Part shown: positions 2,523 to 58,298 of the stretch, piece by piece
Layout: each line of letters opens with the position of its first letter
Numbering within the stretch: the first letter of the stretch is position 1
NCBI GenBank assembly: GCA_964622425.1
Contig: CAZUQN010000003.1
Coordinates: forward strand, 1,166 to 65,165
Length of the DNA stretch: 64,000 bases
Source: an uncultured Ruminococcus sp.
GTDB lineage: Bacteria; Bacillota; Clostridia; Oscillospirales; CAG-272
Direction: 5' to 3'
Position numbers and translations under genes: made by a program
Notes under the pieces: generated by a model
Databases searched by the model: none
The model's input: only the letters and a program-made list of their open reading frames with translations
Told to the model about the DNA's origin: nothing

Positions 2523-4628
2523 ATGACTAACAGAGAAAAGATTACCGAGAACTTCGGTGTTATGCTTTTTAGCGAGCACGTAATGAAGGAAAGGCTCACT
2601 CCCACCGCATACGAGTCGGTAAGACTCGCCAAGGAGAGAGGCACTCCCCTCTCTCACGAGGTTGCAAAGTGCGTAGCCAAGGCTATGCTTGAGTGGGCGG
2701 TCGAGCACGGAGCAACACATTATACACACTGGTTCCAGCCTATGACGGGCATTACCGCTGAGAAGCACGATGCCTTCATAGAGCCTCACAAGATAACGAA
2801 GGAGCCCATACTCAAGCTGTCAGAAAGATCGCTTGTCAAGGGCGAGGCGGACGCATCGAGCTTCCCCTCGGGAGGTCTCAGAGCCACCTTCGAGGCAAGA
2901 GGCTATACCGCTTGGGACCCTACCTCCTACGCCTTCGTTAAGGACGGAAGTCTGTATATACCCACCGCCTTCTGCTCATACGGCGGAGAGGCGCTTGACA
3001 AAAAGACTCCCCTCCTTCGCTCCATCGACGCACTCAACGTGCAGGCAATGAGAATACTCCGCCTCTTCGGTGACGAGAAGACCAAGAGAGTCATTCCGAC
3101 CGTCGGCGCAGAGCAGGAATACTTCCTTATCGACAAGAGCGTGTATGAAAAAAGAGTCGACCTCATTCATTGCGGCCGCACCCTCTTCGGCGCCCGTCCC
3201 ACCAAGGGTCAGGAGCTCGAGGACCACTACTACGGCTCGATAAAGCCGAGAGTCGCCGCATTTATGAAGGAGCTCGACGCGGAGCTCTGGAAAATGGGTG
3301 TGTATGCCAAGACCAAGCACAACGAGGCCGCACCCGCTCAGCACGAGCTGGCGTGTATATACGAATCGTCAAATGTCGCCACCGACCAGAATCAGATAGT
3401 TATGGACCTTATGAAATCCATAGCGGGCAAGCATGATCTCGTCTGCATTCTGCACGAGAAGCCCTTTGCCTCTGTCAGCGGCAGCGGAAAGCATAACAAC
3501 TGGTCCTTGTCCACCGACTCGGGCGAGAACATTTTTGAGCCGGGCGCTACCCCAAACGATAACGCTCGTTTCCTACTCTTCCTCCTCGCGGTAATATCCG
3601 CCGTGGACAAGCATCAGGACCTGCTCAGAATAAGCATCGCCTCAGCGGGTAACGACCACCGTCTCGGCGCATCAGAGGCTCCCCCCGCCATTGTTTCCAT
3701 CTATCTTGGCGAGGAGCTCGAGGCTATCCTCGACGCTATCGAGCGCGGTGAAAGCTATCACGCGAGCGGCTCCTCAGAGCTCAAGGTCGGTATCTCTACT
3801 CTCCCCACAATACAAAAGGACTCCACCGACAGAAACAGGACGTCCCCCTTTGCATTCACGGGTAATAAATTTGAATTCAGAATGGTTGGCGCGCCGGCAA
3901 ATATCGGCTGTCCCAACTTCATCATAAACACTATCGTTGCAGATGAGCTTCGCGCCTTTGCGGACGAGCTTGAGGGCAAGGACGACTTAAACACCGCGCT
4001 CTCCGAGCTCTTCAGAAAAACGGTAAAGGCTCACAAGAGGATCATTTACAGCGGCAACAGCTATTCCGACGAGTGGCGCCGCGAGGCGGCAAAGCGAGGT
4101 CTTTTGAATCTCGAATCAACGCCCGACGCGCTCTTGCACTATCCCGACAAAAAGAACGTTACGCTCTTTGAGAGTCACAACGTGCTCACCGAGAGCGAGA
4201 TATGCTCCCGCGGAGAAATACTGCTTGAAAACTATGCGAAAACGGTACACATCGAGGCGCTCACCGCCCTTGATATGGCGAGAATGGAAATTCTGCCTAG
4301 CATAGTGAAATATCAGGACTTCCTCCTTGCGGAGATTATGAAAAAGAAGAGCTTCCCCGCCCTTAGCGCAAGGCCCGAGGAGGACCTGCTCTCGCGTATA
4401 AGCTCTCACTTCGACAGCTTCTACTCCGAGCTCTTGCTCCTTGAAGAAAGCCTCGAGAAATACCCAGCATCAGCTCCCGCAAGGGAGAGAGCCTTCTATT
4501 CCAAGGACAAGCTCCTTGCCTCTATGGAGAGGCTCAGAGGCAGCGCTGACAGAATGGAGCTTTTGATAGGAAAAGAGTTCTTACCGTACCCCTCTTACGA
4601 GGATATTCTATACAGTGTCAAATATTAA
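2523..4628 (+). CDS. glnN: type III glutamine synthetase
   Basis: 701 aa, the GSIII size class. The N-terminal block FGVMLFSEHVMKERL...GATHYTHWFQPMTGITAEKHDAFI matches my memory of GSIII N-terminal domains. Also NEAAPAQHE and SGSGKHNNWS motifs. Confidence 0.8.
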   Translation: MTNREKITENFGVMLFSEHVMKERLTPTAYESVRLAKERGTPLSHEVAKCVAKAMLEWAVEHGATHYTHWFQPMTGITAEKHDAFIEPHKITKEPILKLSERSLVKGEADASSFPSGGLRATFEARGYTAWDPTSYAFVKDGSLYIPTAFCSYGGEALDKKTPLLRSIDALNVQAMRILRLFGDEKTKRVIPTVGAEQEYFLIDKSVYEKRVDLIHCGRTLFGARPTKGQELEDHYYGSIKPRVAAFMKELDAELWKMGVYAKTKHNEAAPAQHELACIYESSNVATDQNQIVMDLMKSIAGKHDLVCILHEKPFASVSGSGKHNNWSLSTDSGENIFEPGATPNDNARFLLFLLAVISAVDKHQDLLRISIASAGNDHRLGASEAPPAIVSIYLGEELEAILDAIERGESYHASGSSELKVGISTLPTIQKDSTDRNRTSPFAFTGNKFEFRMVGAPANIGCPNFIINTIVADELRAFADELEGKDDLNTALSELFRKTVKAHKRIIYSGNSYSDEWRREAAKRGLLNLESTPDALLHYPDKKNVTLFESHNVLTESEICSRGEILLENYAKTVHIEALTALDMARMEILPSIVKYQDFLLAEIMKKKSFPALSARPEEDLLSRISSHFDSFYSELLLLEESLEKYPASAPARERAFYSKDKLLASMERLRGSADRMELLIGKEFLPYPSYEDILYSVKY

Positions 4629-5375: not shown

Positions 5376-6563
5376 ATGAAAGAATTCGAACTCAAGTACG
5401 GCTGTAACCCCAATCAGAAGCCCTCTAAGATCTATATGCACGACGGCTCCGAGCTCCCTATCGAAATCCTTTCGGGCAGACCCGGATACATCAACTTCCT
5501 CGACGCCTTCAACTCCTGGCAGCTTGTTAAGGAAATAAAGGAAGCGATCGGCATGCCCGCTGCGGCAAGCTTCAAGCACGTATCTCCCACTGCGGCGGCT
5601 ATCGGTAAGCCTCTCTCGGACGCGCTTAAGAAGGCGTGCTTCGTAGACGACATCGAGGGCCTTGACGACTCACCCCTCGCCTGCGCTTACGCAAGAGCGA
5701 GAGGCACTGACAGAATGTCCTCCTTCGGCGACTGGATCGCTCTTTCCGACGAGTGCGACCTCACCACCGCTAAGATCATCAGCCGCGAGGTATCCGACGG
5801 AATAATCGCTCCCTCCTACTCTCCCGAGGCTCTCGAGCTTCTCAAGGCTAAGAGAAAGGGCGCTTACAACATCGTAAAGATCGATCCCGACTTCGTACCC
5901 GCAGAGGTTGAGAGAAAGCAGGTATTCGGCATCACCTTCGAGCAGGGCAGAAACAACTTCAAGATCGACCGCGAGCTTCTCTCCAACGTTGTAACCGCTA
6001 ACAAGGATCTCCCCGACGAGGCAAAGATCGATATGATCATCGCCCTCATAACGCTTAAGTACACTCAGTCAAACTCGGTATGCTTTGCCAAGGACGGTCA
6101 GGCTATCGGCGTTGGCGCAGGTCAGCAGTCGAGAATCCATTGTACCCGTCTTGCAGGCGACAAGGCAGACCTCTGGCACCTCCGCCAGAGCGAGAGAGTC
6201 CTCTCCCTCAAGTTTGCCGACGGCATAGGCAGACCCGACAAGAACAATATAATCGACCTCTATCTCTCCGACAGAGATTCGGACACCGTGCTCGGTGACG
6301 ACGTATGGCAGAACTACTTCTCCGAAAGACCCGAGCCCTTCACAAGAGAGGAAAAGGACGCATATCTTGCAACCATCAAGGGAGTCACCGTAGGCTCTGA
6401 CGCGTTCTTCCCCTTCGCGGACAATATAGACCGTGCGGCAAAGAGCGGCGTGTCCTACATCGCGGAGCCCGGCGGATCTATCCGCGACAATCTCGTTATC
6501 GAGGCGGCGGATAAGTACGGTATGGTAATGTCCTTCACCGGAATGAGACTCTTCCATCATTAA
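5376..6563 (+). CDS. purH: AICAR formyltransferase (PurH lacking the MGS-like cyclohydrolase domain)
   Basis: 395 aa. LKYGCNPNQ start and C-terminal GGSIRD...MRLFHH, typical of the AICARFT domain. Confidence 0.85.
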   Translation: MKEFELKYGCNPNQKPSKIYMHDGSELPIEILSGRPGYINFLDAFNSWQLVKEIKEAIGMPAAASFKHVSPTAAAIGKPLSDALKKACFVDDIEGLDDSPLACAYARARGTDRMSSFGDWIALSDECDLTTAKIISREVSDGIIAPSYSPEALELLKAKRKGAYNIVKIDPDFVPAEVERKQVFGITFEQGRNNFKIDRELLSNVVTANKDLPDEAKIDMIIALITLKYTQSNSVCFAKDGQAIGVGAGQQSRIHCTRLAGDKADLWHLRQSERVLSLKFADGIGRPDKNNIIDLYLSDRDSDTVLGDDVWQNYFSERPEPFTREEKDAYLATIKGVTVGSDAFFPFADNIDRAAKSGVSYIAEPGGSIRDNLVIEAADKYGMVMSFTGMRLFHH

Positions 6564-14322: not shown

Positions 14323-14511
14323 CTTTCGCGCCGCGAAAGTCAACTATGATTGCCTGACGGCAAGTTATGATACGCTTCGCGTAAGTTTAAATGCTCGCTA
14401 CGGCTCGCATAAAGTTAGATAGGCAATCATTTCATAACGAGTGCATAGCACTCTCATAACTTTCACGCAGTGAAATCATAACGTTCGCTTTGTGAACTCA
14501 TAACTTTAAAC
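14321..14511. repeat. mini-hairpin array with constant word TCATAAC (family copy 1 of 3)
   Basis: Starts on the guaA stop codon. Example units: gagtgcATAgcactc TCATAAC tttcacGCAgtgaaa TCATAAC gttcgcTTTgtgaac TCATAAC. The left half carries the reverse word GTTATGA. Confidence 0.7.
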
Positions 14512-18508: not shown

Positions 18509-18905
18509 TGGGGCCAACGCCCATTAACTAAGCTTGTCAAGGACAAGCTTAACTTCACTCGGGCTTCGCCCGAACTTCACTCGCACTCCGCGCGAACTTC
18601 ACCAAATACAGTTCATGCAAAGAAGCAAATTACACAAATAACAGGCTGAAAAGCAAACAAAAGTGCTCATTATGGCGTTGTGTTCTCTAGAAACGCAACG
18701 CCAACTCTATTCGCCTCTCGGCGGGCTCTATTGCTAAAGCAGTTATATTGCTCCGCAGTTCTATTCACTTCGCGAGTTTGAAGTTAGAGGCGAATAGAAT
18801 ACAACTGTGAGGCAAAGCCGAACAATATAACTTCCCGACAGGGAAATATCACTTTTGCGTAGCAAAAATATCATGCTGTCATAGACAGCATATCACTAAA
18901 AGCTA
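18509..18905. repeat. long mini-hairpin array with words ACTTCAC and ATATCAC
   Basis: Example units: aagcttgtcAAGgacaagctt AACTTCAC tcgggcTTCgcccga ACTTCAC tcgcacTCCgcgcga ACTTCAC ... ttcccGACAgggaa ATATCAC ttttgcGTAgcaaaa ATATCA tgctgtcATAgacagca TATCAC. Confidence 0.65.
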
Positions 18906-28234: not shown

Positions 28235-28404
28235 CTTCAATCTAATTATATACTTCGGTTTATTAAAAGTCAAGTACTTTTTGATATTTTTTTAACAATG
28301 TTTTTATATAAAAAGGCACTGTGTCACTAAGAATTCAGTCATCACATAATTTTAAAGACTAAAACAAGCGGAAAGCACTGAATTCTTGGTGCAAAGCGCC
28401 TTTC

Positions 28405-28613
28405 GGGGCTAGATCAATTTAGGATGGAAATCAGTAGCCGTAAGGGAACCGAACTAACAAGTCTTACGACGATACCTTTTAGTGTCTTTCGCCACGCAGA
28501 GTCTTGTAAAGTCGTACTGACGAGCGATAGATGTATATAAATACATCGAGCGAGGAAACGGCGATAGAAAAAGAGTGTGAGAGGTGGAAATTACGAGAAT
28601 TTCCACCTCTCAC
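28405..28613. repeat. structured intergenic element, short copy (possible ncRNA), ending in a terminator-like hairpin
   Basis: About 90 percent identical by eye to both ends of 48316-48719. Contains hairpin GCCGTAAG...CTTACGAC and a terminal hairpin GTGAGAGGTGGAAATT..AATTTCCACCTCTCAC. Confidence 0.4.
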
Positions 28614-28706
28614 CTATAGAATATTAGGTTTCAGGGTTGTTTTCATTGGCTTCTCGACTCTTTTTCGATTACGCCTAAATAAATCAGCCCCTGTTAATTG
28701 GTTTAG

Positions 28707-47031: not shown

Positions 47032-47862
47032 ATGCCGAAATGGGCAAAAAAGGCGCTTGACGTGACCTCAACGGTAGCACTGATAATTTTCATAGTTTTC
47101 GTAATACTGCTCCTTGGAGTCAGAGTGTTCGGCATAGAGCCGCACATAGTGCTCTCCGGCTCGATGGAGCCCGAAATACTGACCGGCTCGATGGTCTACG
47201 TTGACAAGCTCACCCCCGAGGAGGCCGCAAGCCTTCAACCCGGCGACACCGTCACCTACCAAGTCGACCAAAGAGGCACCAAGGTAACGCATAAGATATA
47301 TAACGTGGTCGGTAAAATACCGATCTACGATACCGATGAAAACGGCAATCAGAAGCTCGACGAAAGCGGCAACCCCATCATAAAGGAGTACGCCAAGGAT
47401 GCCGAGGGCAACGAGATAGTGATGTATACCACATACGGCGTGAACAACGTCAAGGACGGTAATATTGAGCTCGCGCTCGACGGTGATCCTGAGATCGGCA
47501 ACCTCGCCTCGTCAAACGTTATCGGCAAGGCTAAGTTCTCTATTCCCTTCCTCGGCTACATCGCGCACTTCGTGCAGAACCCGCCCGGCAAGTATCTCGT
47601 GCTCATCGGCTGCGTGATGCTGATATTTATGACCTTCTTTGCAAACGGACCGGCAGACAATGCGGCGGAGCCGCAGCCTGTAGGGACCGGCGTCCTCGAC
47701 GGTCCGTCCGAAATGCAAAATGCAGAATGCAAAATGCAAAATGAGGAGAGCGAGAGTACGCAAGAGATGAAACCCGTAGGGGACGGCGGTCTTGACGGTC
47801 CGTCTGAACCTCAAAGCGAAAGCGAAGATGCGCCCTCCGAAACCGCAGAAAATGACAACTAA
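47032..47862 (+). CDS. sipW: SipW-type (ER/archaeal-type) signal peptidase I with an unusual ~70-aa C-terminal tail
   Basis: 276 aa. N-terminal TM segment, catalytic SGSMEP motif and a second TM near residue 190. The tail is encoded by repeat-like DNA. Confidence 0.85.
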   Translation: MPKWAKKALDVTSTVALIIFIVFVILLLGVRVFGIEPHIVLSGSMEPEILTGSMVYVDKLTPEEAASLQPGDTVTYQVDQRGTKVTHKIYNVVGKIPIYDTDENGNQKLDESGNPIIKEYAKDAEGNEIVMYTTYGVNNVKDGNIELALDGDPEIGNLASSNVIGKAKFSIPFLGYIAHFVQNPPGKYLVLIGCVMLIFMTFFANGPADNAAEPQPVGTGVLDGPSEMQNAECKMQNEESESTQEMKPVGDGGLDGPSEPQSESEDAPSETAENDN

Positions 47863-47940: not shown

Positions 47941-48189
47941 TGCCTTCCCTTGTGAGGCAACGAAGTGGCGTTTCGGTAGTGAATTGCATTGATAATGCAA
48001 GAGCCGAAACGTGACCGAGCCGAAGCGAGACAGGGGGACCATTTATGGTGGATGAGTAGTTACAGCGCATGCTTATTTCAACGTAGACATTTTAACTCCT
48101 CATCCGTCATACTCAATCAAGATTTCGTATGCCACCTTCTCCAACAGGAGAAGGCTCTCTTGATTATCAACTTTCAATTTTCAACTTTC

Positions 48190-48295
48190 AATTATCCACT
48201 CACGTTCGTGAGTGATGATATACAACGCGAAGCGTTGATGATATACGTTCACTCCTCGTGAGCGATGATATGCTCGACTTCGTCGAGATACTTGG
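48190..48295. repeat. mini-hairpin array with word ATGATATA
   Basis: cactcacGTTCgtgagtg ATGATATA caacgcGAAgcgttg ATGATATA cgttcacTCCTCgtgagcg ATGATAT gctcgacTTCgtcgag. Confidence 0.65.
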
Positions 48296-48315
48296 CGATT
48301 GCCGCGATTCGATTA

Positions 48316-48719
48316 GGGGCCGGCTGAATTTGGGATGGAAATCAGTAGCCGTAAGGGAACCGAACTAATAAGTCTTACGGCGATAACTTTTAGTGTCTTT
48401 CGCCACGCCGAGTCTTGTAAAGTCGCACTTGACCGCGACTCGTCGCAGCAAAACCCATCAAAAATTTGTTCGCCGTAAGATGCGAAGCAGTTATGAAAGA
48501 ATAGATTTTTTCATAGACGAGCCAAATCTTTCGAGAAATATACAGATATTTAAGAAAAATTCGGTGATGTATAGGGGAAAATCTATCTTTCATAACCTTG
48601 TGAGTTTAGTTCCCTTACGGCTATCCGCCCGAGAGGCGTATATACATACGTCGGAGGAAGGAAACGGCGATAGAAAAAGAGTGTAAGAGGTGGAAATTAC
48701 GAGAATTTCCACCTCTCAC
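48316..48719. repeat. structured intergenic element, long copy (possible ncRNA)
   Basis: Shares both ends with 28405-28613 and has about 195 extra internal nt. Long-range pairing TAGCCGTAAGGGAAC (48345 region) with GTTCCCTTACGGCTA (48610 region). Same terminal hairpin. Confidence 0.4.
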
Positions 48720-48759
48720 AAATACGTATTTTGAGTTTATATTATTTTTATTGGCTTCT

Positions 48760-49998
48760 TCACTCTTTTTCGGTTACGCCTAAATTGAGCAGCCCATTTT
48801 CAATCGCCTCAATGCGATCGCCAAGCGGCGGATGGCTATACTCAAGCGCAACGTTGATGCGCGAGGGCGAAAGGTGCGCAAAGTTCTCCCTCGCGAGCTT
48901 CTTGAGCGCCGAGACCATCGCCTCGCCGTAGCCCTCCTTAACCGCCTGCTCGTCTGCGCGGTATTCTGCCTTGCGGCTGCGCGCGTTGATCACAAGCGAG
49001 GTAAGGGGCTGGATAAGTCCGAGACCTGCCGAAAGGAGTATGTAAGCAAAGCCGTAGTTGACCTCGCCAAAGCCGAATGCCGTGTGTAATGCTGGCGCGC
49101 TGACCGCACCCCATACGATAAGCGACATTATAAGCAGGTTGCCGAAATTAAGTATCTGATTCTTGAGCACGTCGCGATGCAGACCGTGGCCGAGCTCGTG
49201 CGCAAACACCGAGCATATCTCGTCTGCGGTCATCGCGTTCACAAGATTGTCGTAGAGGACTATCGTCTTGAGCTTGCCAAAGCCGGTGAAGTAGGCGTTG
49301 AGCTTGGTCGTTCTGCGTGAGGCGTCCATAACCTCAATAGCCTTTACCGTGTACCCGTGCTTAGTTAAGAGCTCCATAAGTCTGTCCTTGAGCTCGCCGT
49401 CCTCGAGGGGCGTGAACTTGTTGCCTACTCTGCTGAGTATGGGATAGAGGAAGGAAATCACGAGCGTCACAAGGAAGATCGCTACAGCAAAGAGGAGGAT
49501 CATCCAGTTACCGAGCCACACGTGCACCGCGCGCAGGAGCACCACGATACCGATCGAAATGCCGAGCTCAATGATAAATCCGCGGATCTTGTCGATAACA
49601 AAGGTCTTCATAGTCGAGCGGTTAAAGCCGTACTTTTCCTCGATCTTCATCGTGCCGATATAGCTGAAGATGACCGACACGACCGTGCCGACCGCGCTCT
49701 CAAGGAGTATGACCGAAAACAGCTGCATAAACCAGCTATCACCAAACAGCCCAGCAAATGCCGAGTAGACGTTGGTCGCGAGCATCAGCACACTCACCGC
49801 ACAGCCGACGAGTCCCGAGATTATCGAGAGCCTCGAGTGCTCCGCGCTGTACTTCTTCCATCTGTCATAGGTTTCCGCGTCGTAAACGTCCGCAAGGTTC
49901 TCGGGCGTCGGATTGCTTGCCGAGCGATACTGCACCAGATTCAGCACAAGCTGATAAAGCCCGGAAATGATTACCGCAATAATTACAAGTAGCTTCAT
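48760..49998 (-). CDS. M48 family (Ste24/HtpX-like) zinc metalloprotease
   Basis: 412 aa, polytopic. HELGH motif (FAHELGHGLH). Confidence 0.85.
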   Translation of the reverse strand: MKLLVIIAVIISGLYQLVLNLVQYRSASNPTPENLADVYDAETYDRWKKYSAEHSRLSIISGLVGCAVSVLMLATNVYSAFAGLFGDSWFMQLFSVILLESAVGTVVSVIFSYIGTMKIEEKYGFNRSTMKTFVIDKIRGFIIELGISIGIVVLLRAVHVWLGNWMILLFAVAIFLVTLVISFLYPILSRVGNKFTPLEDGELKDRLMELLTKHGYTVKAIEVMDASRRTTKLNAYFTGFGKLKTIVLYDNLVNAMTADEICSVFAHELGHGLHRDVLKNQILNFGNLLIMSLIVWGAVSAPALHTAFGFGEVNYGFAYILLSAGLGLIQPLTSLVINARSRKAEYRADEQAVKEGYGEAMVSALKKLARENFAHLSPSRINVALEYSHPPLGDRIEAIENGLLNLGVTEKE

Positions 49999-50020
49999 AG
50001 TAAATCTCCATATTCTTTTG

Positions 50021-50290
50021 TAGCCAATGCCAACCTAAATCGAATACGTTTTAAGTGACGATTTTTTCGAGAGTACGCATCAAGAATCCTCGCGATATAG
50101 CATATGAAGTATTTTTGATTTCTCTTCCAAAAAAACGTCTACTAAAAATCTAATGACCTAAAGCCGACAGAAATTCAATGAATTTTTTAAAATGCGAACG
50201 AAGTCAAGTAACACTTTACGAGCGAGAATTTTGAAAAAGGCGTGGATTTATGCGGCTTCAGGCGTGTTCGCTTTAGGTTGGCATTGGCTA
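50021..50290. repeat. perfect 20-nt inverted repeat pair enclosing 230 nt
   Basis: GTAGCCAATGCCAACCTAAA (50021-50040) pairs with TTTAGGTTGGCATTGGCTAC (50271-50290). Confidence 0.6.
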
Positions 50291-50439
50291 CCCCTATTTT
50301 ACCAAATATCAAGAACTTTTTCAAGTAGTAAAAACTTTTTTAACTTTTGTGACTTTGTTACATACAAACGGCGAAAAATGTGATATAATAAGAGCGTAAA
50401 GAAACGAAGAAACCGCTATTACTAGAAGGAGACCATACG

Positions 50440-50646
50440 ATGAAACCGAGAATCACCCTCAACGAGGATAAAGAAATAGTCGCAACCGTAAAGCAAGGCC
50501 TTAAGGAGCGCGGCGGATACTGTCCCTGCCGTTTCGAGAAGATCGAGGACAATAAGTGCATCTGCAAGGAATTCCGCGAGCAGATCGCAGATCCCGACTT
50601 CGAGGGCTACTGCCACTGCATGCTGTACTATAAGCACAAATCGTAA
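50440..50646 (+). CDS. ferredoxin:thioredoxin reductase catalytic-subunit-like protein
   Basis: 68 aa. CPC...CIC...CHC cysteine pattern and a strong SD. Confidence 0.65.
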   Translation: MKPRITLNEDKEIVATVKQGLKERGGYCPCRFEKIEDNKCICKEFREQIADPDFEGYCHCMLYYKHKS

Positions 50647-50683
50647 TTCACAGTAATTTATAGAAAAGAAAGGAATATAAAAA

Positions 50684-50992
50684 ATGTCAGTACTTCACAT
50701 TGGAAAAGCAGAATTTGATGAGAAGATAAGAAACAGCGAGAAGCCCGTCCTTGTGGACTTCTACGCAACCTGGTGCGGCCCGTGTAAGATGATCGCGCCC
50801 ATCCTAGAGGAGATCGCCGAGGAGCACCCCGAGTACGTTATCGCTAAGGTAAACGTTGACGACGAGCCCGAGCTCGCAAAGGAGTTTAAGATCATGTCCA
50901 TCCCCGCCCTCTTTGTCCTGAGAGACGGCGAGATCACCGATAAGGCCGTCGGCTACCGCGATAAGGACGCTCTGCTAGATCTTCTAAGCTAA
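50684..50992 (+). CDS. trxA: thioredoxin
   Basis: 102 aa. WCGPCK active site. Confidence 0.9.
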   Translation: MSVLHIGKAEFDEKIRNSEKPVLVDFYATWCGPCKMIAPILEEIAEEHPEYVIAKVNVDDEPELAKEFKIMSIPALFVLRDGEITDKAVGYRDKDALLDLLS

Positions 50993-50994
50993 AA

Positions 50995-51150
50995 CGCCGC
51001 CCTCGGCGTTAACGTTCACGCAGTGAACATATCGCACCGTCGCGAGCGACGGTATATCGCTGTCTAACCTTTCAGACAATATCGCATCTGCCAAAGGCAG
51101 ATATATCGCTTTAATCCGCCCACGTGTGGGCGGATTAAACATTTTCGTCC
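50995..51150. repeat. mini-hairpin array with word ATATCGC
   Basis: gttcacGCAgtgaac ATATCGC accgtcgCGAGcgacggt ATATCGC tgtctAACCTTTCagaca ATATCGC atctgccAAAggcagat ATATCGC, followed by ttaatccgcccACGTgtgggcggattaa. Confidence 0.7.
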
Positions 51151-51400
51151 AAGCCCACGGGTGGGACTAGGGGGACCGCAACGGGGTTCCTCGATGCGAG
51201 CGAAGTCGAGCATCAGGGGTTCGCGTGCTGGCGGTGGATGAGTAGTTACAAAGCGAAGCGGTGGAGGAGTCATTCTGCGTACAAAGTCTTGCAACTACTC
51301 ATCCGTCATTTGCTCCGCAAAATCCACCTTCCCTCACAAGGGAAGGCCGAGAAAAAAGAGCCTCGCATTTCTGCGAGGCTCTAAAACTTTGTATTCAACA

Positions 51401-51508
51401 CTCCCCTTTGGGGAGGGATGGGCCACGAAGTGGCGGGTGAGGTTTAATTAGTTAGAGTATCGCAACCTCATCCACCATAAATGGTCCCCCTTCCCCAAAG
51501 GGGGAAGG
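51401..51508. repeat. MITE-like pair of inverted two-hairpin repeat units
   Basis: Left arm: CTCCCCtttgGGGGAG..GCCACgaaGTGGC GGGTGAGG. Right arm: CCTCATCC ACCATaaATGGT CCCCCTTCCCCaaagGGGGAAGG. Confidence 0.5.
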
Positions 51509-51692
51509 TCGTAGATGCTACGCACTTCGAATTTTGCACTTGCGGCTCTGCCGCACCGACCGAGCCCGCAGGCGAGACAAGGGGGACCATTTATGGTGGA
51601 TGAGGTGTACTTCGTACAAAACCTTACAACTACTCATCCGTCATTCTCAAACAAGTTTTCGAACGACACCTTCCCTCACAAGGGAAGGCCGA

Positions 51693-51723
51693 GAAAAAAG
51701 AGCCTCGCATTTCTGCGAGGCTC
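51693..51723 (-). terminator. rho-independent terminator of the giant gene (duplicated at 51352-51381)
   Basis: On the minus strand: GAGCCTCGCagaaatGCGAGGCTC followed by TTTTTT. Confidence 0.7.
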
Positions 51724-51758
51724 AAAGCTTTTTAAAAGCCGAAATTGTTTTTGCGTTT

Positions 51759-54700
51759 TTACGGGGTTACCATTCCCACTTCGTTATCCGTGAGCCACTG
51801 GTCGGTCGCGATTGTCAAGTCATCCTTTTTAATCGTGATTGAACCGCCAACGCTAACCTCAACATCTACTGTTGTAATAACAGAATCAAGATTACCATAT
51901 CTCCAAGACCACTTCTTGTCGAACGTAACAGTATACTGACCTATTGCAACGTCAGTAACAGTAAGAGCTACGCCGTCAACAACCGCAACGGTGAAGGTCT
52001 TGCCTTCTGCGAAGGTACCTGCAACACCGGTAAAGGTAAGGATAAAGCTGTCACTCTGTCCGCTTGTAATCTTAATTTCGAGATCAGCCGAGCGAGGAAG
52101 GAAGAGTGCGTAGTAGGTTGCGGAAATGTAGAGATTACCTTCCTGCTCATCACCATTATCATCCTCATAAGTGAACTGGGTCTTGGTGGGAATCAAGTGG
52201 CTATACTCTCCAATGGTCACTGGGTCAACATTAGTATCAATAGGAGTCGTGCACTCTGCATCCTTGAACCAACCGGCAAAATAATATGTCTCAGACTCAT
52301 AAGGAATAGAGCCCACAGGTGTATCATCAGAACCGGAATTAATGTTTTCACGCGTCATTGACAAACCAACGTCGCTTCCATCAATATCGTCACAAACGAT
52401 CTCGTAGATAAATGTCGACTCAGATTTCTGATAGTAGAAAATAATCACGTTACGAGATTCGTCAATATAGAGTGTAAGCGATCTCTGTGTAGACTGATCT
52501 ACAAGGTCACAACCCTTGTTGTTAACGATCTCCATATGCTTCTGCTTGTCAAGATCAACGGTGACAAGGTGTCCATGCTGAACTCCAGACGCGTCTGCTG
52601 CAACCTCATAAGAGTAATATTCCTCACCGCTATCAACATCCACGTACTTAACAGTATATCCAACAGTAACGCGATCATAGTACAGATTTATCTCTAAACC
52701 GTATTCAGTAATCGTATAACCGAATTTTTCTTCATCCATGTTGATGTGCTCAAGATCGCCCTGTGGAATAACTACACTCTCAACTACACCCGAAGTCTCA
52801 TCTTGCCTACGTGTCTCAGCATCTGCCTTTGAGAAACTGTATCCGGTAATGTCAGTCAAAACAGTTCCAAACACTATGTTTCCATCGCCGCCCTGAATAA
52901 TCTCAAAGGTGCCCGACTGATAAGAATAAACCGAATATGTTCCATCGACGTTCTGTATCAAATGATTTACAACCCAAGGAGCTGTTATGGGTGCATCAGC
53001 TTCGTTCTTGGTGTAATAGAAGGTAATAACGTTATTTGTCGCTTGATCGGTAGATGAAAGAATCAAGGACTTTGAATAAGCGTCAACTGTATAACCCGTA
53101 ATAGGTACAAATAGCTCAGTGACCGCGGCTTTTCTCGTTTTGCCCTCATAGGTTGCGGGATAGTTTGGATCGGTAGAGTCAAATACTTCTCGTGTTTCGT
53201 TATCAACGTATTTTACCCAATAACTTACCTCTTCAACCTCGTCATAAACGAAGTTGTACTCATTAACAAGAATGTTTCCATCTCCATCCTTTTCAAACTT
53301 CATCTGAACAGTATGGCTTCCTACCTGAGGGAAATAGCCCTCTTGGTAATCAGCATAAAGATCAGCTCCTGCCAAAGCACGGAAGGTTTTGTTCTGACCG
53401 GCAAGCGCGCTTCCCAGCATGGAATTACCGATCTGCACGTATACTGGCTCGTCATTTTCATCAACAACCAGCTGACCGTTCTCATCCTTTTGTTGAGTTA
53501 CAAAATTAATCTTGTAGTTAACCGTCTGCTCGGAAATCCACTTAGCATAGATAACCATATCCTGAGTGATTGGGAAGTTGAAGAGAAATGCTTTTTCTTC
53601 ATTTGTTTCGGGATCTACGTAGAACCAACCATTGAAAGTATAGTTAAGGTCCTTCTTGTATGCAGACTGCGTATAATCAGGCTCTACAGCATAGTATCTA
53701 TGTCCAACATACTGATCACCGTAGTTATCCTCACTAAACTGTGTGGTAAATGTAGCATCATCATACACTTTGACATGTCTAGTGACAGGGGTCCAAATAG
53801 CATAAAGGTTAAGCTCGCCGTCAGGAAGCGTGTCCGTCTCCCAGTCTACCATTGTATACTCACTTTGATACTCAGTAGTGTACCAACCTGCAAAAACGTA
53901 TGCTCCGACCTCAAGCTGACTAGGATATGGTACATTATTAATGTCAAAGTTACCATATGTTTCACTACTTTTCAGCACGGCAGCGAAGTCGCCCAATGAA
54001 GCACCGTATTTTAGAGGATTAGACTCCCCTGCTTGGGGTATGGTAATCAGGCTATTTCCGGCATTGAATATGTTAACCTTGAGATTTGAACTGTTTCTGT
54101 CGTAGAAGTACACATATCGGGTTACATTCTCAACGTCCAACACATTTATGCCTTCTGTTTTTTCAGGGTTAGTCTCTGTTCCTGTGACGGTATGAATATT
54201 CATACCGTGGATACTCTTTATTCCTTCTTTTTCTAGCTGAGCAAGAGCATCAATTACTCCGTCTCCATCGGAATCCGTGGCATCTAATGCGATAAATTGC
54301 ATATGTGTAGAATCTGCATCGTACCACTTTCCATCGAATTCCTTTCTTCCGTTTCCGTTTTCATCGTAAGGAATTTCGCCACTTTCTATATCAAAGCTCT
54401 CAAACATATAGTAGAGAATATATGGAACAATATTGCTCGAATACTGAGCGACCGTCCTGATTCCTGCAGAATAGCAAAGTTCAGTAACCATCGTTATGTG
54501 TTTAACGTAACGATCTATCGCTTTACTTGTATCCGTACCAGTACTATCATATTTCCAATATGTAAAATATGCTCCTTCATCATTTTGTTGAAGCCCAAGC
54601 GTATTTAGCTCAATGAAATACGGAACATATGCAGTAATATCCTGACCATATTTGGCCTGAAGTATTCTTATTGTTTGATAATAATCTTCCGGCTTAGCTT

Positions 54701-57700
54701 CAGCTTTTTGTTCGTCAGATAGGTTGTTATATACTTCCGAATAAGTAGTATCATTGGTATGCTGATGTTCTGGCTTCATACAGAGATAGCCATAACAATC
54801 TATGGTGTGTTCATGGGTGCATAAGCAATAATCTGTATGCTCGTGCTCCGCTTTTCCGCAACCATAGCAACCTTCGGCATCTGTATGCGTGTGCTCATAA
54901 CCAACAGTACAGACTTCACTGTTACATCCACCGGTGTGGTCGTGGTCAGGGGCATTTTCAGGACAAGTATCTGCCTCAATAATGACTGGGTTGGTTGAAT
55001 AATCCACATCAGGATCATAAGCATCATAATAGTACCATTGACCATTGATATAGATGGTGGGAACATCCATATATATGGTACCTGATATAATTCCCGTGCG
55101 GCTACTATACGGCACTGCTAAATCGTTCAATACATATACATATCCATTTTGAAGATTTTGAGGCGGAGCTTCCTTTTGAACAGCCGTAGCAGCTTCCGCG
55201 GCCTTTTCAGATGCAGTATCGTTAACAATGGTATTAAGTATGCCCGAAATAAGATCTCCTCCCCAAGAGAAGTTCTTCTTAATGTCAGCCTCAACTAAAG
55301 GGGAAGCGGCAGAACCAATTGAAGTTGCCATATCTGAATCAACGGAATAACAACCTGCATCGTGCACGTGCACGCCACAACATTCTGGTCCATGTATGTG
55401 CTCAGTTTTACTACAATTCTTGCATCCTGCAACATGTGTGTGTTCTTCAATGGAGCAAGAGCCCGAAGTATTGCAAGCGGAGGTATGCACGTGTTTACAA
55501 TAGAAGGGGTTGTACTCACAAGTACCGTCACCATGAAAATGTTCGTCAAGTTTGCAACCCGACTTAAGCGTATCCGCAACAAAAGTGATCTGATAGTAAC
55601 GACGATTAAAGAACACGTTAACCGTGGAGGAACCATCACCCTTAATAACAACGCCATCAGGAGAATCCTTAACCATTTCCTCATACGTCAACGATGTATT
55701 AAGCGTTGTATACTGATAATCCTCATCCCCGGTTACTACATCATCAATTGGAACTGGATTATCCCCATCATACTTTATGTACGTTCCTGATGTAGCGGTC
55801 TTCGGTACTGTATGCCAGATACTGTAGTTACCGTCATTGGGGTTTTCGAGCCAGTAAACCATATTATAATTTACTATCTCTTCACTCCAATTTGCCTTGT
55901 AAGTAACATTACAAATTATCTTGACTTTGTTTTCTTTACCTGCTGTTAAGTATTCATATCCGGCAGCGGGATCATCACAATCGACTACCTCCCACCCAAC
56001 AAATCCGTAACCTGCACAAATTGCATCGTTAATACCGACCTCATATCCATACGGAACATAAAGGTTCTCCTGTCCATATGCACCGTCTTCAACCATATCG
56101 AAGAGAACGGTGTAATACTCTCTATCGTAACGAACTTCAATGACTGTGCTACCGTCCGCAGCGATCTCAGTAGGTTCATAATAGAGGTGGCGGAAACCGG
56201 TAATATCAATCTCACAACCACTAACAGGGGAATCAACCGTACCGGACCCTTCGGTAACCGGTTGAGCCTCATATGCTACATAATTGTCATCATATACGTT
56301 CTTAATAAAGTGGTATATTTTGTATTTAGCCTTACCGGGATAATAATAAACGTTTACCGTATAGTCTGCGGTATATCCGGCGTCAATTGAAACAGTCGTA
56401 AGAGAATCATCCGAATCCGGATTCTGTGAAAAATCATAAGGATTAGAGGGTTCCGTCATGCTCGGGTAATATCCGAGAACAGAAGGAATATTAACCGTAT
56501 ACGCCTCATAATCGGTCTTTAAGGTACGGATATCGGGATAAGTTGCTTGAACCTGTGTTCCGTCAGGGCGTACCTTAATGAAGTTGACGGTTAGAGTGAT
56601 ACGCTCGGTAGACGTATCTCCATCCGCATAAGCCTTTGCGCTGTGTACAATGTATTCCTCGTTAGCAGTGGTAATATTCTCGTACTCAGGCTCCATGGGT
56701 TTAGGAGCGTAAACCGTCTTAATAGTGATGGGCAGAGATCTGTACTCAGTCTCACCATCATATGCCACTGCGCGAATCTTTGTCTTGTTATTTTCATCAA
56801 GGACATTCTTTACGAGAGCATAGGTGACGTAACATACATCGGTCACCTTGTCGTATATTCTAGCCCAAGTGTTATTTTCTGCATCAACAAGGATTTCCCA
56901 TCCCCATTCAACGTCACCGGTAAGTCTCTCCGTCTTTGCAGCTTCAAGAAGCATTTTACCGTCTTCATAAAGCGTGATTATGTCAGTTTCCTGTCCACGA
57001 TAGGTTATGGAAACAGGAGAAACGTACTCCTCGGTGATAATGAGATCGTAATAAGGATCGATGTATCTATACTGATCGTATATCATCGGCCAATCCACAT
57101 TGGTCGCATATACGTAAGTATCATCTTTATGAATTCGCTTAACGATTACTTCCTCGGGGAAGTTCTTAGTAGATACCTCGGGCTCAACGTCCTCATCTCC
57201 GTAGCCATACTCCTCGAATATAGCACTTTCTGAAGGCTCAGCAGGTCTATACGGTGCTAAACCTGTTTCTGTTTCACCAAGATTCCAGACTGCAGTGTAT
57301 TCCTTGCCAAGCTCCATTTCATCGACTGATAATCCTCCGTCTATCAGGAGCTTATCTGCATCAATATACCTATAGTCATCATAGCCTGCAGGCCAATCGA
57401 GGTTAGTTGTGTAAACAAGGTTGAAATCTCTTACACTGTTACGGATAACCGTTACACTCTCAGGAAGAAGTTCTTCGTTAATGACCTCTCCAAGTGCATC
57501 ATACGTATTAATAAAATTAAATCTCGCATAAGGCCAGAAGGTATCCGATACCCACTTCGCCGAATAGAGCTTACCGACCTCCATATCGGAGACGGAGAGT
57601 CCGGTTTCCTCATCGGTGCTATCGAGCGCTATCGCGGGGACCACGCCGATAGGCAATATATAGAACACTGTCACAAGCGCCAGAAGGAGCGAAAGTATTC

Positions 57701-57710
57701 TTTTTTTCAT
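51759..57710 (-). CDS. giant secreted multi-domain surface/adhesin-like protein (no recognisable anchor)
   Basis: 1983 aa, SD AGGAGG, Sec signal MKKRILSLLLALVTVFYILPIGVVPAIA. Two ~100-aa N-terminal repeats. F.GW-type Listeria-Bacteroides repeats (YVFAGWYT, YTFNGWFYVDPETNEE, YYFAGWFKD). MucBP-like Y.VKYVD modules. Two Cys/HxH-rich blocks. No LPXTG and no C-terminal TM seen. Confidence 0.8.
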   Translation of the reverse strand: MKKRILSLLLALVTVFYILPIGVVPAIALDSTDEETGLSVSDMEVGKLYSAKWVSDTFWPYARFNFINTYDALGEVINEELLPESVTVIRNSVRDFNLVYTTNLDWPAGYDDYRYIDADKLLIDGGLSVDEMELGKEYTAVWNLGETETGLAPYRPAEPSESAIFEEYGYGDEDVEPEVSTKNFPEEVIVKRIHKDDTYVYATNVDWPMIYDQYRYIDPYYDLIITEEYVSPVSITYRGQETDIITLYEDGKMLLEAAKTERLTGDVEWGWEILVDAENNTWARIYDKVTDVCYVTYALVKNVLDENNKTKIRAVAYDGETEYRSLPITIKTVYAPKPMEPEYENITTANEEYIVHSAKAYADGDTSTERITLTVNFIKVRPDGTQVQATYPDIRTLKTDYEAYTVNIPSVLGYYPSMTEPSNPYDFSQNPDSDDSLTTVSIDAGYTADYTVNVYYYPGKAKYKIYHFIKNVYDDNYVAYEAQPVTEGSGTVDSPVSGCEIDITGFRHLYYEPTEIAADGSTVIEVRYDREYYTVLFDMVEDGAYGQENLYVPYGYEVGINDAICAGYGFVGWEVVDCDDPAAGYEYLTAGKENKVKIICNVTYKANWSEEIVNYNMVYWLENPNDGNYSIWHTVPKTATSGTYIKYDGDNPVPIDDVVTGDEDYQYTTLNTSLTYEEMVKDSPDGVVIKGDGSSTVNVFFNRRYYQITFVADTLKSGCKLDEHFHGDGTCEYNPFYCKHVHTSACNTSGSCSIEEHTHVAGCKNCSKTEHIHGPECCGVHVHDAGCYSVDSDMATSIGSAASPLVEADIKKNFSWGGDLISGILNTIVNDTASEKAAEAATAVQKEAPPQNLQNGYVYVLNDLAVPYSSRTGIISGTIYMDVPTIYINGQWYYYDAYDPDVDYSTNPVIIEADTCPENAPDHDHTGGCNSEVCTVGYEHTHTDAEGCYGCGKAEHEHTDYCLCTHEHTIDCYGYLCMKPEHQHTNDTTYSEVYNNLSDEQKAEAKPEDYYQTIRILQAKYGQDITAYVPYFIELNTLGLQQNDEGAYFTYWKYDSTGTDTSKAIDRYVKHITMVTELCYSAGIRTVAQYSSNIVPYILYYMFESFDIESGEIPYDENGNGRKEFDGKWYDADSTHMQFIALDATDSDGDGVIDALAQLEKEGIKSIHGMNIHTVTGTETNPEKTEGINVLDVENVTRYVYFYDRNSSNLKVNIFNAGNSLITIPQAGESNPLKYGASLGDFAAVLKSSETYGNFDINNVPYPSQLEVGAYVFAGWYTTEYQSEYTMVDWETDTLPDGELNLYAIWTPVTRHVKVYDDATFTTQFSEDNYGDQYVGHRYYAVEPDYTQSAYKKDLNYTFNGWFYVDPETNEEKAFLFNFPITQDMVIYAKWISEQTVNYKINFVTQQKDENGQLVVDENDEPVYVQIGNSMLGSALAGQNKTFRALAGADLYADYQEGYFPQVGSHTVQMKFEKDGDGNILVNEYNFVYDEVEEVSYWVKYVDNETREVFDSTDPNYPATYEGKTRKAAVTELFVPITGYTVDAYSKSLILSSTDQATNNVITFYYTKNEADAPITAPWVVNHLIQNVDGTYSVYSYQSGTFEIIQGGDGNIVFGTVLTDITGYSFSKADAETRRQDETSGVVESVVIPQGDLEHINMDEEKFGYTITEYGLEINLYYDRVTVGYTVKYVDVDSGEEYYSYEVAADASGVQHGHLVTVDLDKQKHMEIVNNKGCDLVDQSTQRSLTLYIDESRNVIIFYYQKSESTFIYEIVCDDIDGSDVGLSMTRENINSGSDDTPVGSIPYESETYYFAGWFKDAECTTPIDTNVDPVTIGEYSHLIPTKTQFTYEDDNGDEQEGNLYISATYYALFLPRSADLEIKITSGQSDSFILTFTGVAGTFAEGKTFTVAVVDGVALTVTDVAIGQYTVTFDKKWSWRYGNLDSVITTVDVEVSVGGSITIKKDDLTIATDQWLTDNEVGMVTP

Positions 57711-57722
57711 TTTTCGTCCTCC

Positions 57723-58283
57723 TTAGGGTGTGATGTTAAGTGTTTTATCGTCGTTGACACTTGCAACGGATGTCCAGCTATTCACAACCGCCCCGGCGGG
57801 CTCTGCCTGAATCGCGGAAGAAAGCACCTGAACGGTGAGTGTGTAGCCTTCCATAGTGGTGTTTGCGGTTACTCCATTTGCAGCAATAAGAGTTACGCTG
57901 TCATCCTTGGATATAGGCTTCTTATAGTACCAGAAGCCGTCACTTCCCTTCGCCCAGTTTGCATCGGTGCTATAAGTGATGGTGTAATCCGCATCTTCGC
58001 CCTCCACAGGCATAGTCGAGAGGATAACACCGTTTGTATCCACCCAAGTAACGACCACTGCAGCGCGGACGTAAACGTCGGTGTCCTCTATGTTTGTGAT
58101 TGTGGAGCCGCTGATAGAGATATCCACCTCACCGGGGGTGAAGGTGTTATTAAGCTCGTTTGTCTTAACGATTATATACGCCAGCGTTGAGCCTACGATG
58201 GCTACGCTGAGCACGACGGTCAGGACTAAAAACGCCACTGCCTTTTTGCCCGACCATATGAAAAACTTAAATGTTTTTGGCAT
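57723..58283 (-). CDS. TasA/CalY-like protein with a SipW-type signal (paralog 6)
   Basis: 186 aa. Signal-anchor followed by STLAYIIVKTNELNNTFTPGEVDISI. Confidence 0.65.
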   Translation of the reverse strand: MPKTFKFFIWSGKKAVAFLVLTVVLSVAIVGSTLAYIIVKTNELNNTFTPGEVDISISGSTITNIEDTDVYVRAAVVVTWVDTNGVILSTMPVEGEDADYTITYSTDANWAKGSDGFWYYKKPISKDDSVTLIAANGVTANTTMEGYTLTVQVLSSAIQAEPAGAVVNSWTSVASVNDDKTLNITP

Positions 58284-58298
58284 TCTTTAATCCTTTCG

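Follow-up and report, generated by a model that had tools for sequence, protein, structure and literature searches.

What are the short structured repeats that crowd one end of this stretch of DNA, and why do two sets of them enclose genes? The stretch, hereafter the window, is a 64,000-nt segment of contig CAZUQN010000003.1 from an uncultured Ruminococcus sp. The repeats appear, with good support, to be DNA-structure modules of the BoxC/PIT/TM kind, in a clostridial variant. On similarly good sequence evidence, two inverted modules would form the ends of a ~0.55-kb cassette encoding a 125-amino-acid DUF559 (Vsr-like, PD-(D/E)XK) nuclease. Most copies, as is also well supported, have no gene: they are either pairs around a 20-60-nt centre or solo ends.

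The window has nine exact copies of the pattern GGGGGACC-N4-12-GGTGGRTGAG, against zero in 100 dinucleotide-preserving shuffles. A tenth copy of the GGGGGACC type has a 49-nt loop insertion (51170-51242) and an eleventh is degenerate (51420-51441). We built a covariance model, R1, from 135 distinct copies drawn from the window and ~110 other genomes, and ran it on the window with filters off. Fourteen full modules were found at E<=1e-3, on both strands and all within 48004-63709. Under the same settings the first 47 kb, which hold purine-biosynthesis and microcompartment genes, gave zero modules. All four of the listed modules lie where a reading of the letters alone (the sequence-only reading) had put them, and its picture of a mosaic in varying order and both orientations holds.

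Read 5' to 3', each module starts with a pyrimidine arm (CCTTCYCC or CTCCCC), which a 3-4-nt loop links to its complement, the purine arm (GGRGAAGG or GGGGAG), to form hairpin A. Hairpin B follows, made of GGGACC, a variable GC stem-loop and GGT, and the module ends with a G-rich box, GG(A/G)TGAGG (GGATGAGG), here called the G-box. The sequence CTCATCCGTCAT, at window positions 48099, 51298 and 51633, forms together with the CCTTCYCC hairpin the opposite-strand reading of a variant module. In this variant a TGGCA..TGAC hairpin stands in place of hairpin B; R1 finds it at 48096-48160, 51295-51352 and 51630-51694. The pyrimidine/purine hairpin and the GGGACC stem-loop had previously been listed as separate modules. 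Both are real, but they are parts of one unit. The long helix named as a third module does pair, but it is merely the inner ends and boxes of an inverted module pair. The fourth, a terminator-like hairpin (GAGCCTCGC..GCGAGGCTC), falls outside the repeat family: it is a host terminator, kept in the related locus L124 and duplicated with a 342-nt segment. The 56-nt identity claimed there is confirmed, at 98% over the 60 nt of 51325-51384 and 51667-51726. As proposed, the GDHLWWMR and PSPKGKG peptides are spurious open reading frames (ORFs) produced by the repeats.

The modules are arranged mostly as inverted pairs, plus one solo copy. Two pairs enclose DUF559 genes and the others are gene-less. 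Five inverted pairs of 120-220 nt are present, small and non-coding, with terminal inverted repeats. Neither this layout nor the pairs around nuclease genes featured in the sequence-only reading.

An insert of ~70-85 nt, X, has a long hairpin of its own and always lies inside or beside the hairpin A purine arm, immediately ahead of GGGGGACC. In the window, X (..GTGACCGAGCCGAAGCGAGACA running into GGGGGACC) splits the first hairpin at 47961-48032 and recurs at 51515-51580. Elsewhere it was seen at 6255-6340 and 9880-9968 of L124 and in several other genomes, and its 12-mer GACCGAGCCGAA at about 4385-4396 of an E. coli locus (L205).

Two samples extended the comparison beyond the window. The DNA-side sample holds at least 120 stretches (823 kb) from a scan for the module-B pattern, with one genome per species. 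Nearly all are from gut or rumen Clostridia; some are from Selenomonadaceae and Flexilinea, and there are variants from other phyla and a few chance matches. The protein-side sample holds 80 metagenome loci chosen by DUF559 protein similarity only (44-56% identity).

The stems covary well in excess of chance. Among the 135 copies used for R1, 99.6% of hairpin B cells are paired. At the three pairs left free by the search pattern the counts are GC 102, AU 31 and GU 2; CG 123, UA 8, GC 2 and AU 1; and CG 24 and GC 4. The stem is extended by 59 of the 66 distinct hairpin B inserts; the extra pairs average 2.23, compared with 0.43 after shuffling. Hairpin A is 94% paired in the protein-side sample, with double-sided changes in 6/6 pairs, in an alignment fitted to the model. 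It is a perfect 8/8 in 147 of 211 distinct copies and at least 7/8 in 180, with loops of 3-4 nt. Every stem pair cited by the sequence-only reading is present (ACCAT/ATGGT, ACCGC/GCGGT, ACCAC/GTGGT, ACCGTC/GACGGT and GCCAC/GTGGC for hairpin B; CCCC/GGGG, CTCC/GGAG and CCCT/AGGG for hairpin A). Selection on a folded nucleic acid, as that reading had it, is supported.

The covariation is three-way, and it includes the G-box. The box is a mirror image, not a complement, of the purine arm: G stands opposite G, and A or T opposite A. Scored as base triads, arm GGAGAAGG with box GGATGAGG, AAGGGAGG with GGAGGGAT, AGGGGAGG with GGAGGGGT and GGAGAGGG with GGGTGAGG all reach 8/8, and GGGGAAGG with GGATGAGG reaches 7/8. 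Shuffled flanks give a mean best triad score of 5.56. At the position where arm and box vary between A and G, A/A was counted 118 times and G/G 13 times, with 1 and 0 in the mismatch cells (p 4e-17, for copies that are not phylogenetically independent). Within the window the A versus G split is 8 versus 3, with zero exceptions. Window modules score 7/8 or 8/8; the mirror alignment equals or beats the parallel one in 11/11 scored modules, and is strictly better in 10. Such covariation is, on good support, the probable signature of a purine-motif intrastrand DNA triplex with a hairpin inserted in the second loop. Nearest-neighbour DNA folding predicts the two hairpins and leaves the G-box single-stranded, triplexes being outside this energy model.

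The sequence-only reading had left open whether RNA or single-stranded DNA was the folded form. A purine-motif intrastrand triplex cannot form in RNA (Holder et al., 2015, PMC4666352). Because of this, and of the mirror covariation of arm and box, the evidence favours DNA structure over RNA structure. The mismatches in hairpin A are G.T in 4 cases versus A.C in 4, without strand asymmetry. Hairpin B loops are mostly c-GNA-g triloops, g-CTTG-c or GNYA, with GNYA outnumbering GNRA by 13 to 8. Loops of the c-GNA-g type make exceptionally stable DNA mini-hairpins (the literature of Hirao, Yoshizawa and Nakano/Bevilacqua). A known RNA family was ruled out: at the repeats, Rfam gave nothing at gathering score and only chance-level matches with E up to 5. 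A hammerhead-like CUGAUGAG was dismissed, having neither a GAAA core nor an Rfam match. No tRNA or tmRNA genes were found. A terminator scan of the window returned the GAGCCTCGC..GCGAGGCTC hairpin, a few host hairpins and an isolated hairpin, CCTTCTCTCACAAGAGAAGG, at 63726-63745, the sole pyrimidine/purine hairpin in the window with a run of T residues (T-run) after it. The scan returned 0/14 modules; as these lack T-runs, a terminator role for them in the window was ruled out.

BoxC was reportedly noticed in E. coli in the early 1990s (1992-96), and is said to have been re-described in 2000 as PIT elements by Hoyne and Maher. The same repeat was then renamed TMECO, with the form CCCTCNCCC-N3-6-GGGNGAGGG-N3-GGGNGAGGG (Holder et al., 2015, Nucleic Acids Research, PMC4666352). 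According to that study, TMECO folds as a triplex in vitro by circular dichroism and nuclear magnetic resonance, with a melting temperature of 70-82 C, and PIT elements block DNA polymerase in vitro. MG1655 has 23 copies, always intergenic and without strand bias. The loci are more rearranged between strains, and the repeats were linked to local rearrangement; no mobility genes were found near them and they have no known function.

The clostridial modules share with BoxC/PIT/TMECO a C-rich arm, a 3-6-nt loop, a G-rich arm and a second G-rich mirror block (G*G, A*A and T*A triads). Both kinds are intergenic, occur in both orientations and often as palindromic pairs, lie at rearrangement-prone loci and show strong conservation between species. 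They differ in the second loop, which is 3 nt in TMECO and, in Clostridia, a 17-27-nt GC hairpin (GGGACC-stem-loop-GGT) or a 20-30-nt variant hairpin. The search for such repeats with ITxF allowed loops of 1-6 nt (PMC4666352), and hence could not list the clostridial variant. The arms also differ, being 8 nt in Clostridia (CCTTCYCC/GGRGAAGG) and 9 nt in TMECO (CCCTCNCCC). Finally, no associated gene or mobility function was reported for TMECO in the published work, whereas the clostridial modules go with DUF559. The window modules do not follow the TMECO sequence pattern; exact TMECO arms occur only in the other-phyla variants and in enterobacterial loci. Intermediates that combine exact TMECO arms with hairpin B (CCCTCTCCC..GGGAGAGGG-GGACCGCAAGGCGGT-GGGTGAGGG) were found in Terriglobia, Deltaproteobacteria, Chitinophagales and Fimbriimonadaceae. 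A catalogued family of known function would have told against the sequence-only reading; BoxC/PIT/TMECO matches in kind, but is a family without a known function.

Both enclosed genes are on the minus strand. The ORF of cassette 1 (59212-59595, 127 amino acids) and that of cassette 2 (63276-63653, 125 amino acids) match DUF559/PF04480 with E values of 2e-27 and 1.3e-27. Besides PF04480, Pfam gave a weak PF18741 match, and Y1_Tnp was absent. The 125-amino-acid protein is a single domain. Residues D49, E60, D62 and H66 are invariant in 24 DUF559 homologues. Among solved structures, the nearest are a Neisseria protein (3HRL) and the homing endonuclease I-Bth0305I, in its catalytic domain (3R3P). 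The latter was reached by sequence (E 3e-4) and by fold (TM score about 0.6-0.74, Foldseek probability 1.0), and Vsr was recovered more weakly. The ratio of nonsynonymous to synonymous substitution rates is 0.10-0.35 between close DUF559 copies. This is purifying selection, and for this reason the ORF is taken to encode a working protein. The sole NCBIfam match is a YcjD-type model, below cut-off. A phage origin was rejected, as megablast found no match in a phage collection. A defence system was likewise rejected, since PADLOC gave only weak, domain-level matches. Exact-protein look-ups found no identical copies on record of DUF559 no. 1 or of the window thioredoxin.

The DUF559 genes are tightly tied to the modules. 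In the 823 kb of DNA-side sequence, tblastn found DUF559 homologues in 11 loci. Among the matches listed, all 11 loci adjoin a module, all 12 hits lie within ~200 nt of one, and DUF559 is the only recurrent gene at module loci. The upstream module was recognised in 9/11 loci (all but L109 and L120); gene and module share a strand there, and the start codon comes 1-70 nt past the G-box. In cassette 2 the G-box GGATGAGG stands 7 nt ahead of the ATG. The upstream G-box appears, with good support, to double as the Shine-Dalgarno sequence of the gene. The complement of the G-box is found after the DUF559 stop codon. DUF559 genes between inverted modules are also present in L021, L047, L082, L118 and L122, and in protein-side loci. 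Because the protein-side loci were chosen by protein similarity only, they bear on the link from the other direction. Here a perfect pyrimidine/purine hairpin of at least 6 bp lies within 130 nt upstream in 51/75 loci, within 160 nt downstream in 49/70, and on at least one side in 59/65. Elsewhere in these loci the background density of such hairpins is 0.12 per kb. The module sequences differ but the architecture is kept, as in GCCTCCCTTGTGTAAAGGGAGG-TGGCACGGCGAAGCCGTGAC-GGAGGGATTG-ATG upstream and ..CCCTCAGTCAGCTTCGCTGACAGCTCCCTTTACACAAGGGAGCC downstream. The downstream hairpin often contains the stop codon and, in other lineages, is followed by a T-run.

Many contigs with close DUF559 homologues are only ~500-1000 nt, about one cassette long. 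This suggests that the elements routinely break short-read metagenome assemblies.

The link is seen in Enterobacteria as well as in Clostridia. The only DUF559 gene of E. coli K-12 is ycjD. Its final codons lie within a degenerate TMECO (CCCTCTCCCtgaaaGAGCGAGGG), 3' of which lies GACCGAGCCGAA, a 12-mer in common with the X insert of the window. Beyond GACCGAGCCGAA come, in this order, a partial duplicate of the ycjD 3' end and a perfect TMECO. The first BoxC to be described reportedly lay downstream of envM (fabI), which we take to be the ycjD intergenic region. In Enterobacter the DUF559 homologue is at a different locus (hemW-yggN) and terminates within a perfect inverted TMECO, the loop of which contains the stop codon. 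A second TMECO follows, and several assemblies break exactly there. The Klebsiella homologue, at a third locus, overlaps a perfect inverted TMECO. In an unknown GC-rich bacterium, TM-like motifs flank the DUF559 gene on either side.

Among 5426 complete E. coli genomes, ycjD is present in 3378 (62%). Genomes carry 1-32 TMECO copies (median 18), in a distribution that looks bimodal (~15-30 versus 1-6). In a 2026 paper ycjD is assigned to phylogroups A, B1 and C. The paper describes ycjD and the eefRABCD efflux operon as alternative occupants of the fabI-sapF spacer, the operon being at that locus in other phylogroups. The TMECO-poor genomes that we inspected belong to phylogroups of the eef kind. 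At phylogroup level the correlation between ycjD and TMECO is confounded by phylogeny and is weakly supportive.

Downstream of DUF559 in Klebsiella (L219/L220, 970-1150), three tandem units of ~76 nt (..GGGAGAGGGAGAAAGAGAGTCCGCACGCAGATTCCATAACCGCACCGAACGGTTCCCTCTCCCTCAGCGAGAGGG) lie between two TMECOs.

Four syntenic loci from close relatives (L121-L124), in which DUF559 no. 2 is 93-98% identical, give evidence of movement. Genomes with housekeeping genes about 68-70% identical share modules at 94-97% identity. The intergenic site before a 260-amino-acid gene holds cassette 1 in the window, other repeats and no DUF559 in L121 and L122, and in L124 a cassette-2-type gene 94.5% identical to no. 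2 of the window. The two cassettes of L124 are at unrelated loci, and the similarity between them runs from one outer hairpin (..CCCC AACCTTCCCC) to the other (GGGGAGTGT), and the flanks are unrelated and without target duplication. The 5' ends of the two copies (~110 nt including X) are identical, and the ORFs differ at 31/378 positions (8%). Presence, absence, replacement and discrete copying of the cassette are all observed. Smaller pieces move too. Both the window and L124 copy 1 have a 93-nt unit after AACCTCACC in the cassette 2 3' end; L121, L122 and L124 copy 2 lack it. In our reading of the alignment this unit, which has AACCTCACC on both sides, has ~20 nt in common with the cassette 2 3' untranslated region. 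The spacer between the window thioredoxin and the large gene has gained ~500 nt of modules relative to L124. Duplicated pieces of host flank lie beside modules in L121 and at E. coli ycjD, and in the window at the solo copy 59885 and in the 342-nt duplication (51.3-51.7 kb).

DUF559 falls into two clades, and each is found with every module type. Hence co-evolution of nuclease clade and module type is unsupported, as is protein-specific end recognition. Target-site duplication was not found: the outer ends of 17 pairs have no direct repeats, and the flanks tend to extend the palindrome. The loci contain 52 gene-less pairs with centres of 21-279 nt. Compared by blastx with 240 DUF559 proteins, these centres gave one marginal 13-amino-acid match. 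As they lack ORF remnants, gene-less pairs as recent deletion derivatives are in general unsupported.

These results are brought together by a homing-like model, in which the cassette most likely spreads as a selfish element by break-induced recombination between modules. The predicted nuclease would nick or cut folded or paired modules, or DNA close to them. Recombination with another module-bearing locus would then repair the break, with the ~45-nt modules as homology. Repair would copy the gene into gene-less pairs, swap ends, drag host flanks along and leave no target-site duplication. The model agrees with several observations: target duplications are lacking, ends are exchanged separately from the ORF, one cassette has taken the place of another at a single site, and flanks are co-duplicated. 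It also fits the kinship of the fold with a proven homing endonuclease and the rearrangement-prone TM loci of E. coli. The action of DUF559 on the modules and the triplex folding of the clostridial variant are predictions. Taken whole, the anatomy together with a homing-like selfish DUF559 cassette bounded by triplex-type inverted ends is, on balance, probable.

Known systems resemble the cassette in part. REP/BIME repeats and their RAYT genes (REPtrons) are likewise structured intergenic repeats in mosaic clusters, with a small enzyme gene between inverted repeats; each genome has many copies that lack the gene, and what is recognised is probably a DNA hairpin. However, RAYT is an HUH/Y1 transposase whereas the enzyme here is of the PD-(D/E)XK Vsr-like type (PF04480). 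DUF559 is also multi-copy (two within 5 kb here, two in L124), and the module adds a triplex-type third strand. Miniature inverted-repeat transposable elements (MITEs; Correia/NEMIS, RUP, Nezha) are also 120-220-nt, non-coding and variable between strains, with terminal inverted repeats, a long hairpin and nesting. Unlike them, the modules have neither target-site duplication nor an associated known transposase family, and the gene-less centres have no remnant of a coding element. No transposase family is among the 25 listed, out of 60 Pfam families, for the first 42 window ORFs. I-Bth0305I, an EDxHD homing endonuclease, and Vsr share the catalytic fold of DUF559. I-Bth0305I is a selfish gene that cuts a pseudopalindromic site and spreads by break repair. 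In contrast to it, DUF559 here has no NUMOD or helix-turn-helix domain and is not in an intron or intein; it is on a bacterial chromosome, bounded by structured inverted repeats. In contrast to Vsr, it lacks the expected neighbouring cytosine methyltransferase. Integron attC-like cassettes were rejected, as the repeats are inverted rather than direct.

Three other explanations were weighed against the homing-like model. The cassette may be a true transposon with MITE-like derivatives. DUF559 would then be the transposase or a subunit of it, excising and reinserting via hairpin or triplex ends, possibly while the DNA is single-stranded at the replication fork, in the manner of RAYT/IS200-type enzymes on REP hairpins. 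The REPtron layout of a gene between inverted repeats, the many short gene-less copies, the copying of a discrete unit between unrelated loci with outer hairpins as its bounds, the loops typical of stable DNA hairpins and the insertion of the 93-nt unit at a specific AACCTCACC would all follow. We nevertheless consider a transposon unlikely: target-site duplication is absent, no second gene recurs with the cassette, and the free reshuffling of ends and genes fits recombination better than it fits protein-specific end recognition. The chemistry of the PD-(D/E)XK fold is hydrolytic; these nucleases hydrolyse DNA, and we know of none that carries out strand transfer. TnsA, for example, needs TnsB.

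The repeats may instead be enzyme-free structures like BoxC/TM, either self-propagating or maintained by the host, which originate and spread by replication slippage and recombination, with DUF559 a passenger or a host processing factor that, for example, relieves polymerase blocks and does not drive spread. Gene-less copies are vastly more numerous and lack ORF remnants, and TMECO is kept in E. coli lineages without ycjD. The missing mobility genes, the tie to local rearrangement and the polymerase block in vitro (PMC4666352) point the same way. An enzyme-free origin seems improbable all the same, as the link is too tight, and found too widely, for a chance passenger given the 12/12 hits beside modules, most protein-chosen DUF559 genes are flanked on both sides, and the start or stop of the ORF is built into modules in Clostridia and at three enterobacterial loci. 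A role as RNA, in which the modules are structured untranslated regions for DUF559 mRNA or neighbouring genes, terminators or small RNAs, would suit the position of the G-box, which resembles a ribosome-binding site, its complement after the stop codon and the downstream T-runs of other lineages; moreover, Vsr-like RAP domains bind RNA in mitoribosomes. Such a role is very unlikely, however. RNA offers no explanation for the mirror covariation, and the counts of mismatches (no G.U over A.C excess) and of loops (GNYA over GNRA, c-GNA-g triloops dominant) do not favour it. Nor do the occurrence of modules in both orientations, the solo copies far from DUF559, the lack of an Rfam match and the lack of T-runs at the window hairpins.

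Several points weigh against the homing-like cassette with triplex ends. Homing alone does not explain how modules would be seeded at naive sites, nor why ~85% of modules are gene-less. Homology arms of ~45 nt are short for RecA-dependent repair. I-Bth0305I needs a separate DNA-binding domain, which the 125-amino-acid DUF559 does not have. The triplex predicted here, with a 17-27-nt hairpin in its second loop, is without a measured precedent, and the commonest arm/box pair scores 7/8 and not 8/8. For TMECO itself, a triplex footprint was not observed in vivo (PMC4666352). TMECO repeats also seem to persist without ycjD, because TMECO-rich genomes (~78% of complete E. coli genomes) outnumber ycjD-positive ones (62%), and because O157 Sakai has 15 TMECO copies and presumably lacks ycjD, as judged from its phylogroup (its ST11 lineage of phylogroup E carries eef there).

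The repeat kind, BoxC/PIT/TM, is known. What is new, as far as the searchable literature shows, is the clostridial form, in which the second loop holds a hairpin, the use of repeats as ends of a gene cassette and, above all, the link to DUF559/YcjD. We found no description of the link between DUF559 or ycjD and these repeats in the searchable literature, and the text of Holder et al. (2015, PMC4666352) has 0 occurrences of ycjD or DUF559. After ~30 years BoxC/PIT/TM is still without a function or mobility mechanism, and DUF559 (PF04480), a very large family, is likewise without a function. In the window, repeat and nuclease gene are physically fused, with the repeat providing the gene ends, the apparent ribosome-binding site and often the stop codon. 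The same fusion occurs in E. coli, Enterobacter and Klebsiella, so that two orphans gain a testable partner and two questions become one. The modules add a large, previously unlisted clostridial branch to the triplex repeats, one that yields spurious ORFs and appears to break metagenome assemblies. It is possible, though we hold the idea only tentatively, that DUF559, including YcjD, is the missing protein partner of BoxC/PIT/TM repeats across phyla, and that its structure-specific cutting drives both their spread and their instability. If so, the cassettes would be a new class of selfish element, with ends set by non-B DNA structure and not by sequence-specific transposase binding. Cutting by DUF559 would then explain the spread of the repeats and of its own gene, and the reported local genome instability.

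Positions of repeat modules, cassettes and associated features in the window
Feature	Position	Strand	Description
Gene-less inverted pair	47942-48160	both	modules 48004-48059 (+, 26.8 bits) and 48096-48160 (-, 30 bits); DNA fold z -3.67
48-kb pair, left part			hairpin A 5' half 47942-47960; nested X insert 47961-48032; hairpin B and G-box 48033-48056 (+)
48-kb pair, inner helix			GGATGAGTAGTT/AACTCCTCATCC
48-kb pair, right module	48096-48160	-	arm GGAGAAGG, box GGATGAGG, 8/8 triads
Gene-less inverted pair	51160-51352		left 51160-51245 (+), with 49-nt insertion in hairpin B loop; right 51295-51352 (-); modules joined by inner helix GATGAGTAGTT..AACTACTCATC
Duplicate terminator	51357-51382	-	GAGCCTCGC..GCGAGGCTC and T-run; carried in 342-nt segmental duplication; outside the repeat family
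Gene-less inverted pair	51392-51514		left 51392-51444 (+), degenerate (GGGCCACGAAGTGGCGGGTGAGG); right 51464-51514 (-); z -4.87
Gene-less inverted pair	51515-51694		left 51557-51607 (+), hairpin A before it replaced by X-like segment (..CGACCGAGCCCGCAGGCGAGACAA); right 51630-51694 (-)
Terminator of 1983-amino-acid gene (51759-57710, -)	51700-51723	-	host feature, kept at the same place in relative L124
DUF559 cassette 1	59106-59684	-	5' module 59634-59684 (-), helix 59147-59175, 3' module 59106-59156 (+); both modules arm GGAGAAGG, box GGATGAGG, 8/8 triads
Solo module	59885-59937	+	CTCCCC TTT GGGGAG, GGGGGACCGTCGCAGACGGT, GGGTGAGG; direct copies of TACCCGAGATTTTTTGCTTCTTTT on its flanks
DUF559 cassette 2	63107-63709	-	5' module 63659-63709 (-), 3' module 63107-63157 (+)
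Nested 93-nt unit	63158-63250	-	hairpin A, hairpin B, G-box, loop, AACCTCACC; in cassette 2 3' end
Isolated pyrimidine/purine hairpin	63726-63745		CCTTCTCTCACAAGAGAAGG; just outside cassette 2

The 3' module of cassette 2 (63107-63157) has two inverted partners, 63203-63254 as well as 63659-63709.

A second kind of structured repeat, unrelated to the modules, consists of arrays of mini-hairpins with a constant word between them. Such arrays lie at 14454-14505, 48183-48290, 51014-51115 and 63788-63920 of the window and at 7810-7900 of L122. Examples are a hairpin with ATATCGC four times (51014-51115), a hairpin with GATGATATAC three times, and a hairpin with TCATAAC/GTTATGA. The stems are perfect and differ from one another, and the loops are c-GAA-g or TTCG. 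A Gut-1 RNA (RF01706) at 18820-18898 (-) is barely at gathering score (50.4 bits); a weak second match (51074-51142, -, 26 bits) overlaps the ATATCGC array and a hairpin.

A repeat of ~400 nt occurs twice, 20 kb apart (28402-28695 and 48313-48800), with 83-93% identity. It includes a 17-bp hairpin (GTGAGAGGTGGAAATT..AATTTCCACCTCTCAC) and has no Rfam match. Runs of GCAAAATG with copies of GGGACGGCGGTCTTGACGGTCCGTC are found at 47684-47817 and 60118-60155 of the window and at 7380-7500 of L122. They partly cover the 3' end of the ORF at 47032-47862, so that its C-terminus may be spurious.

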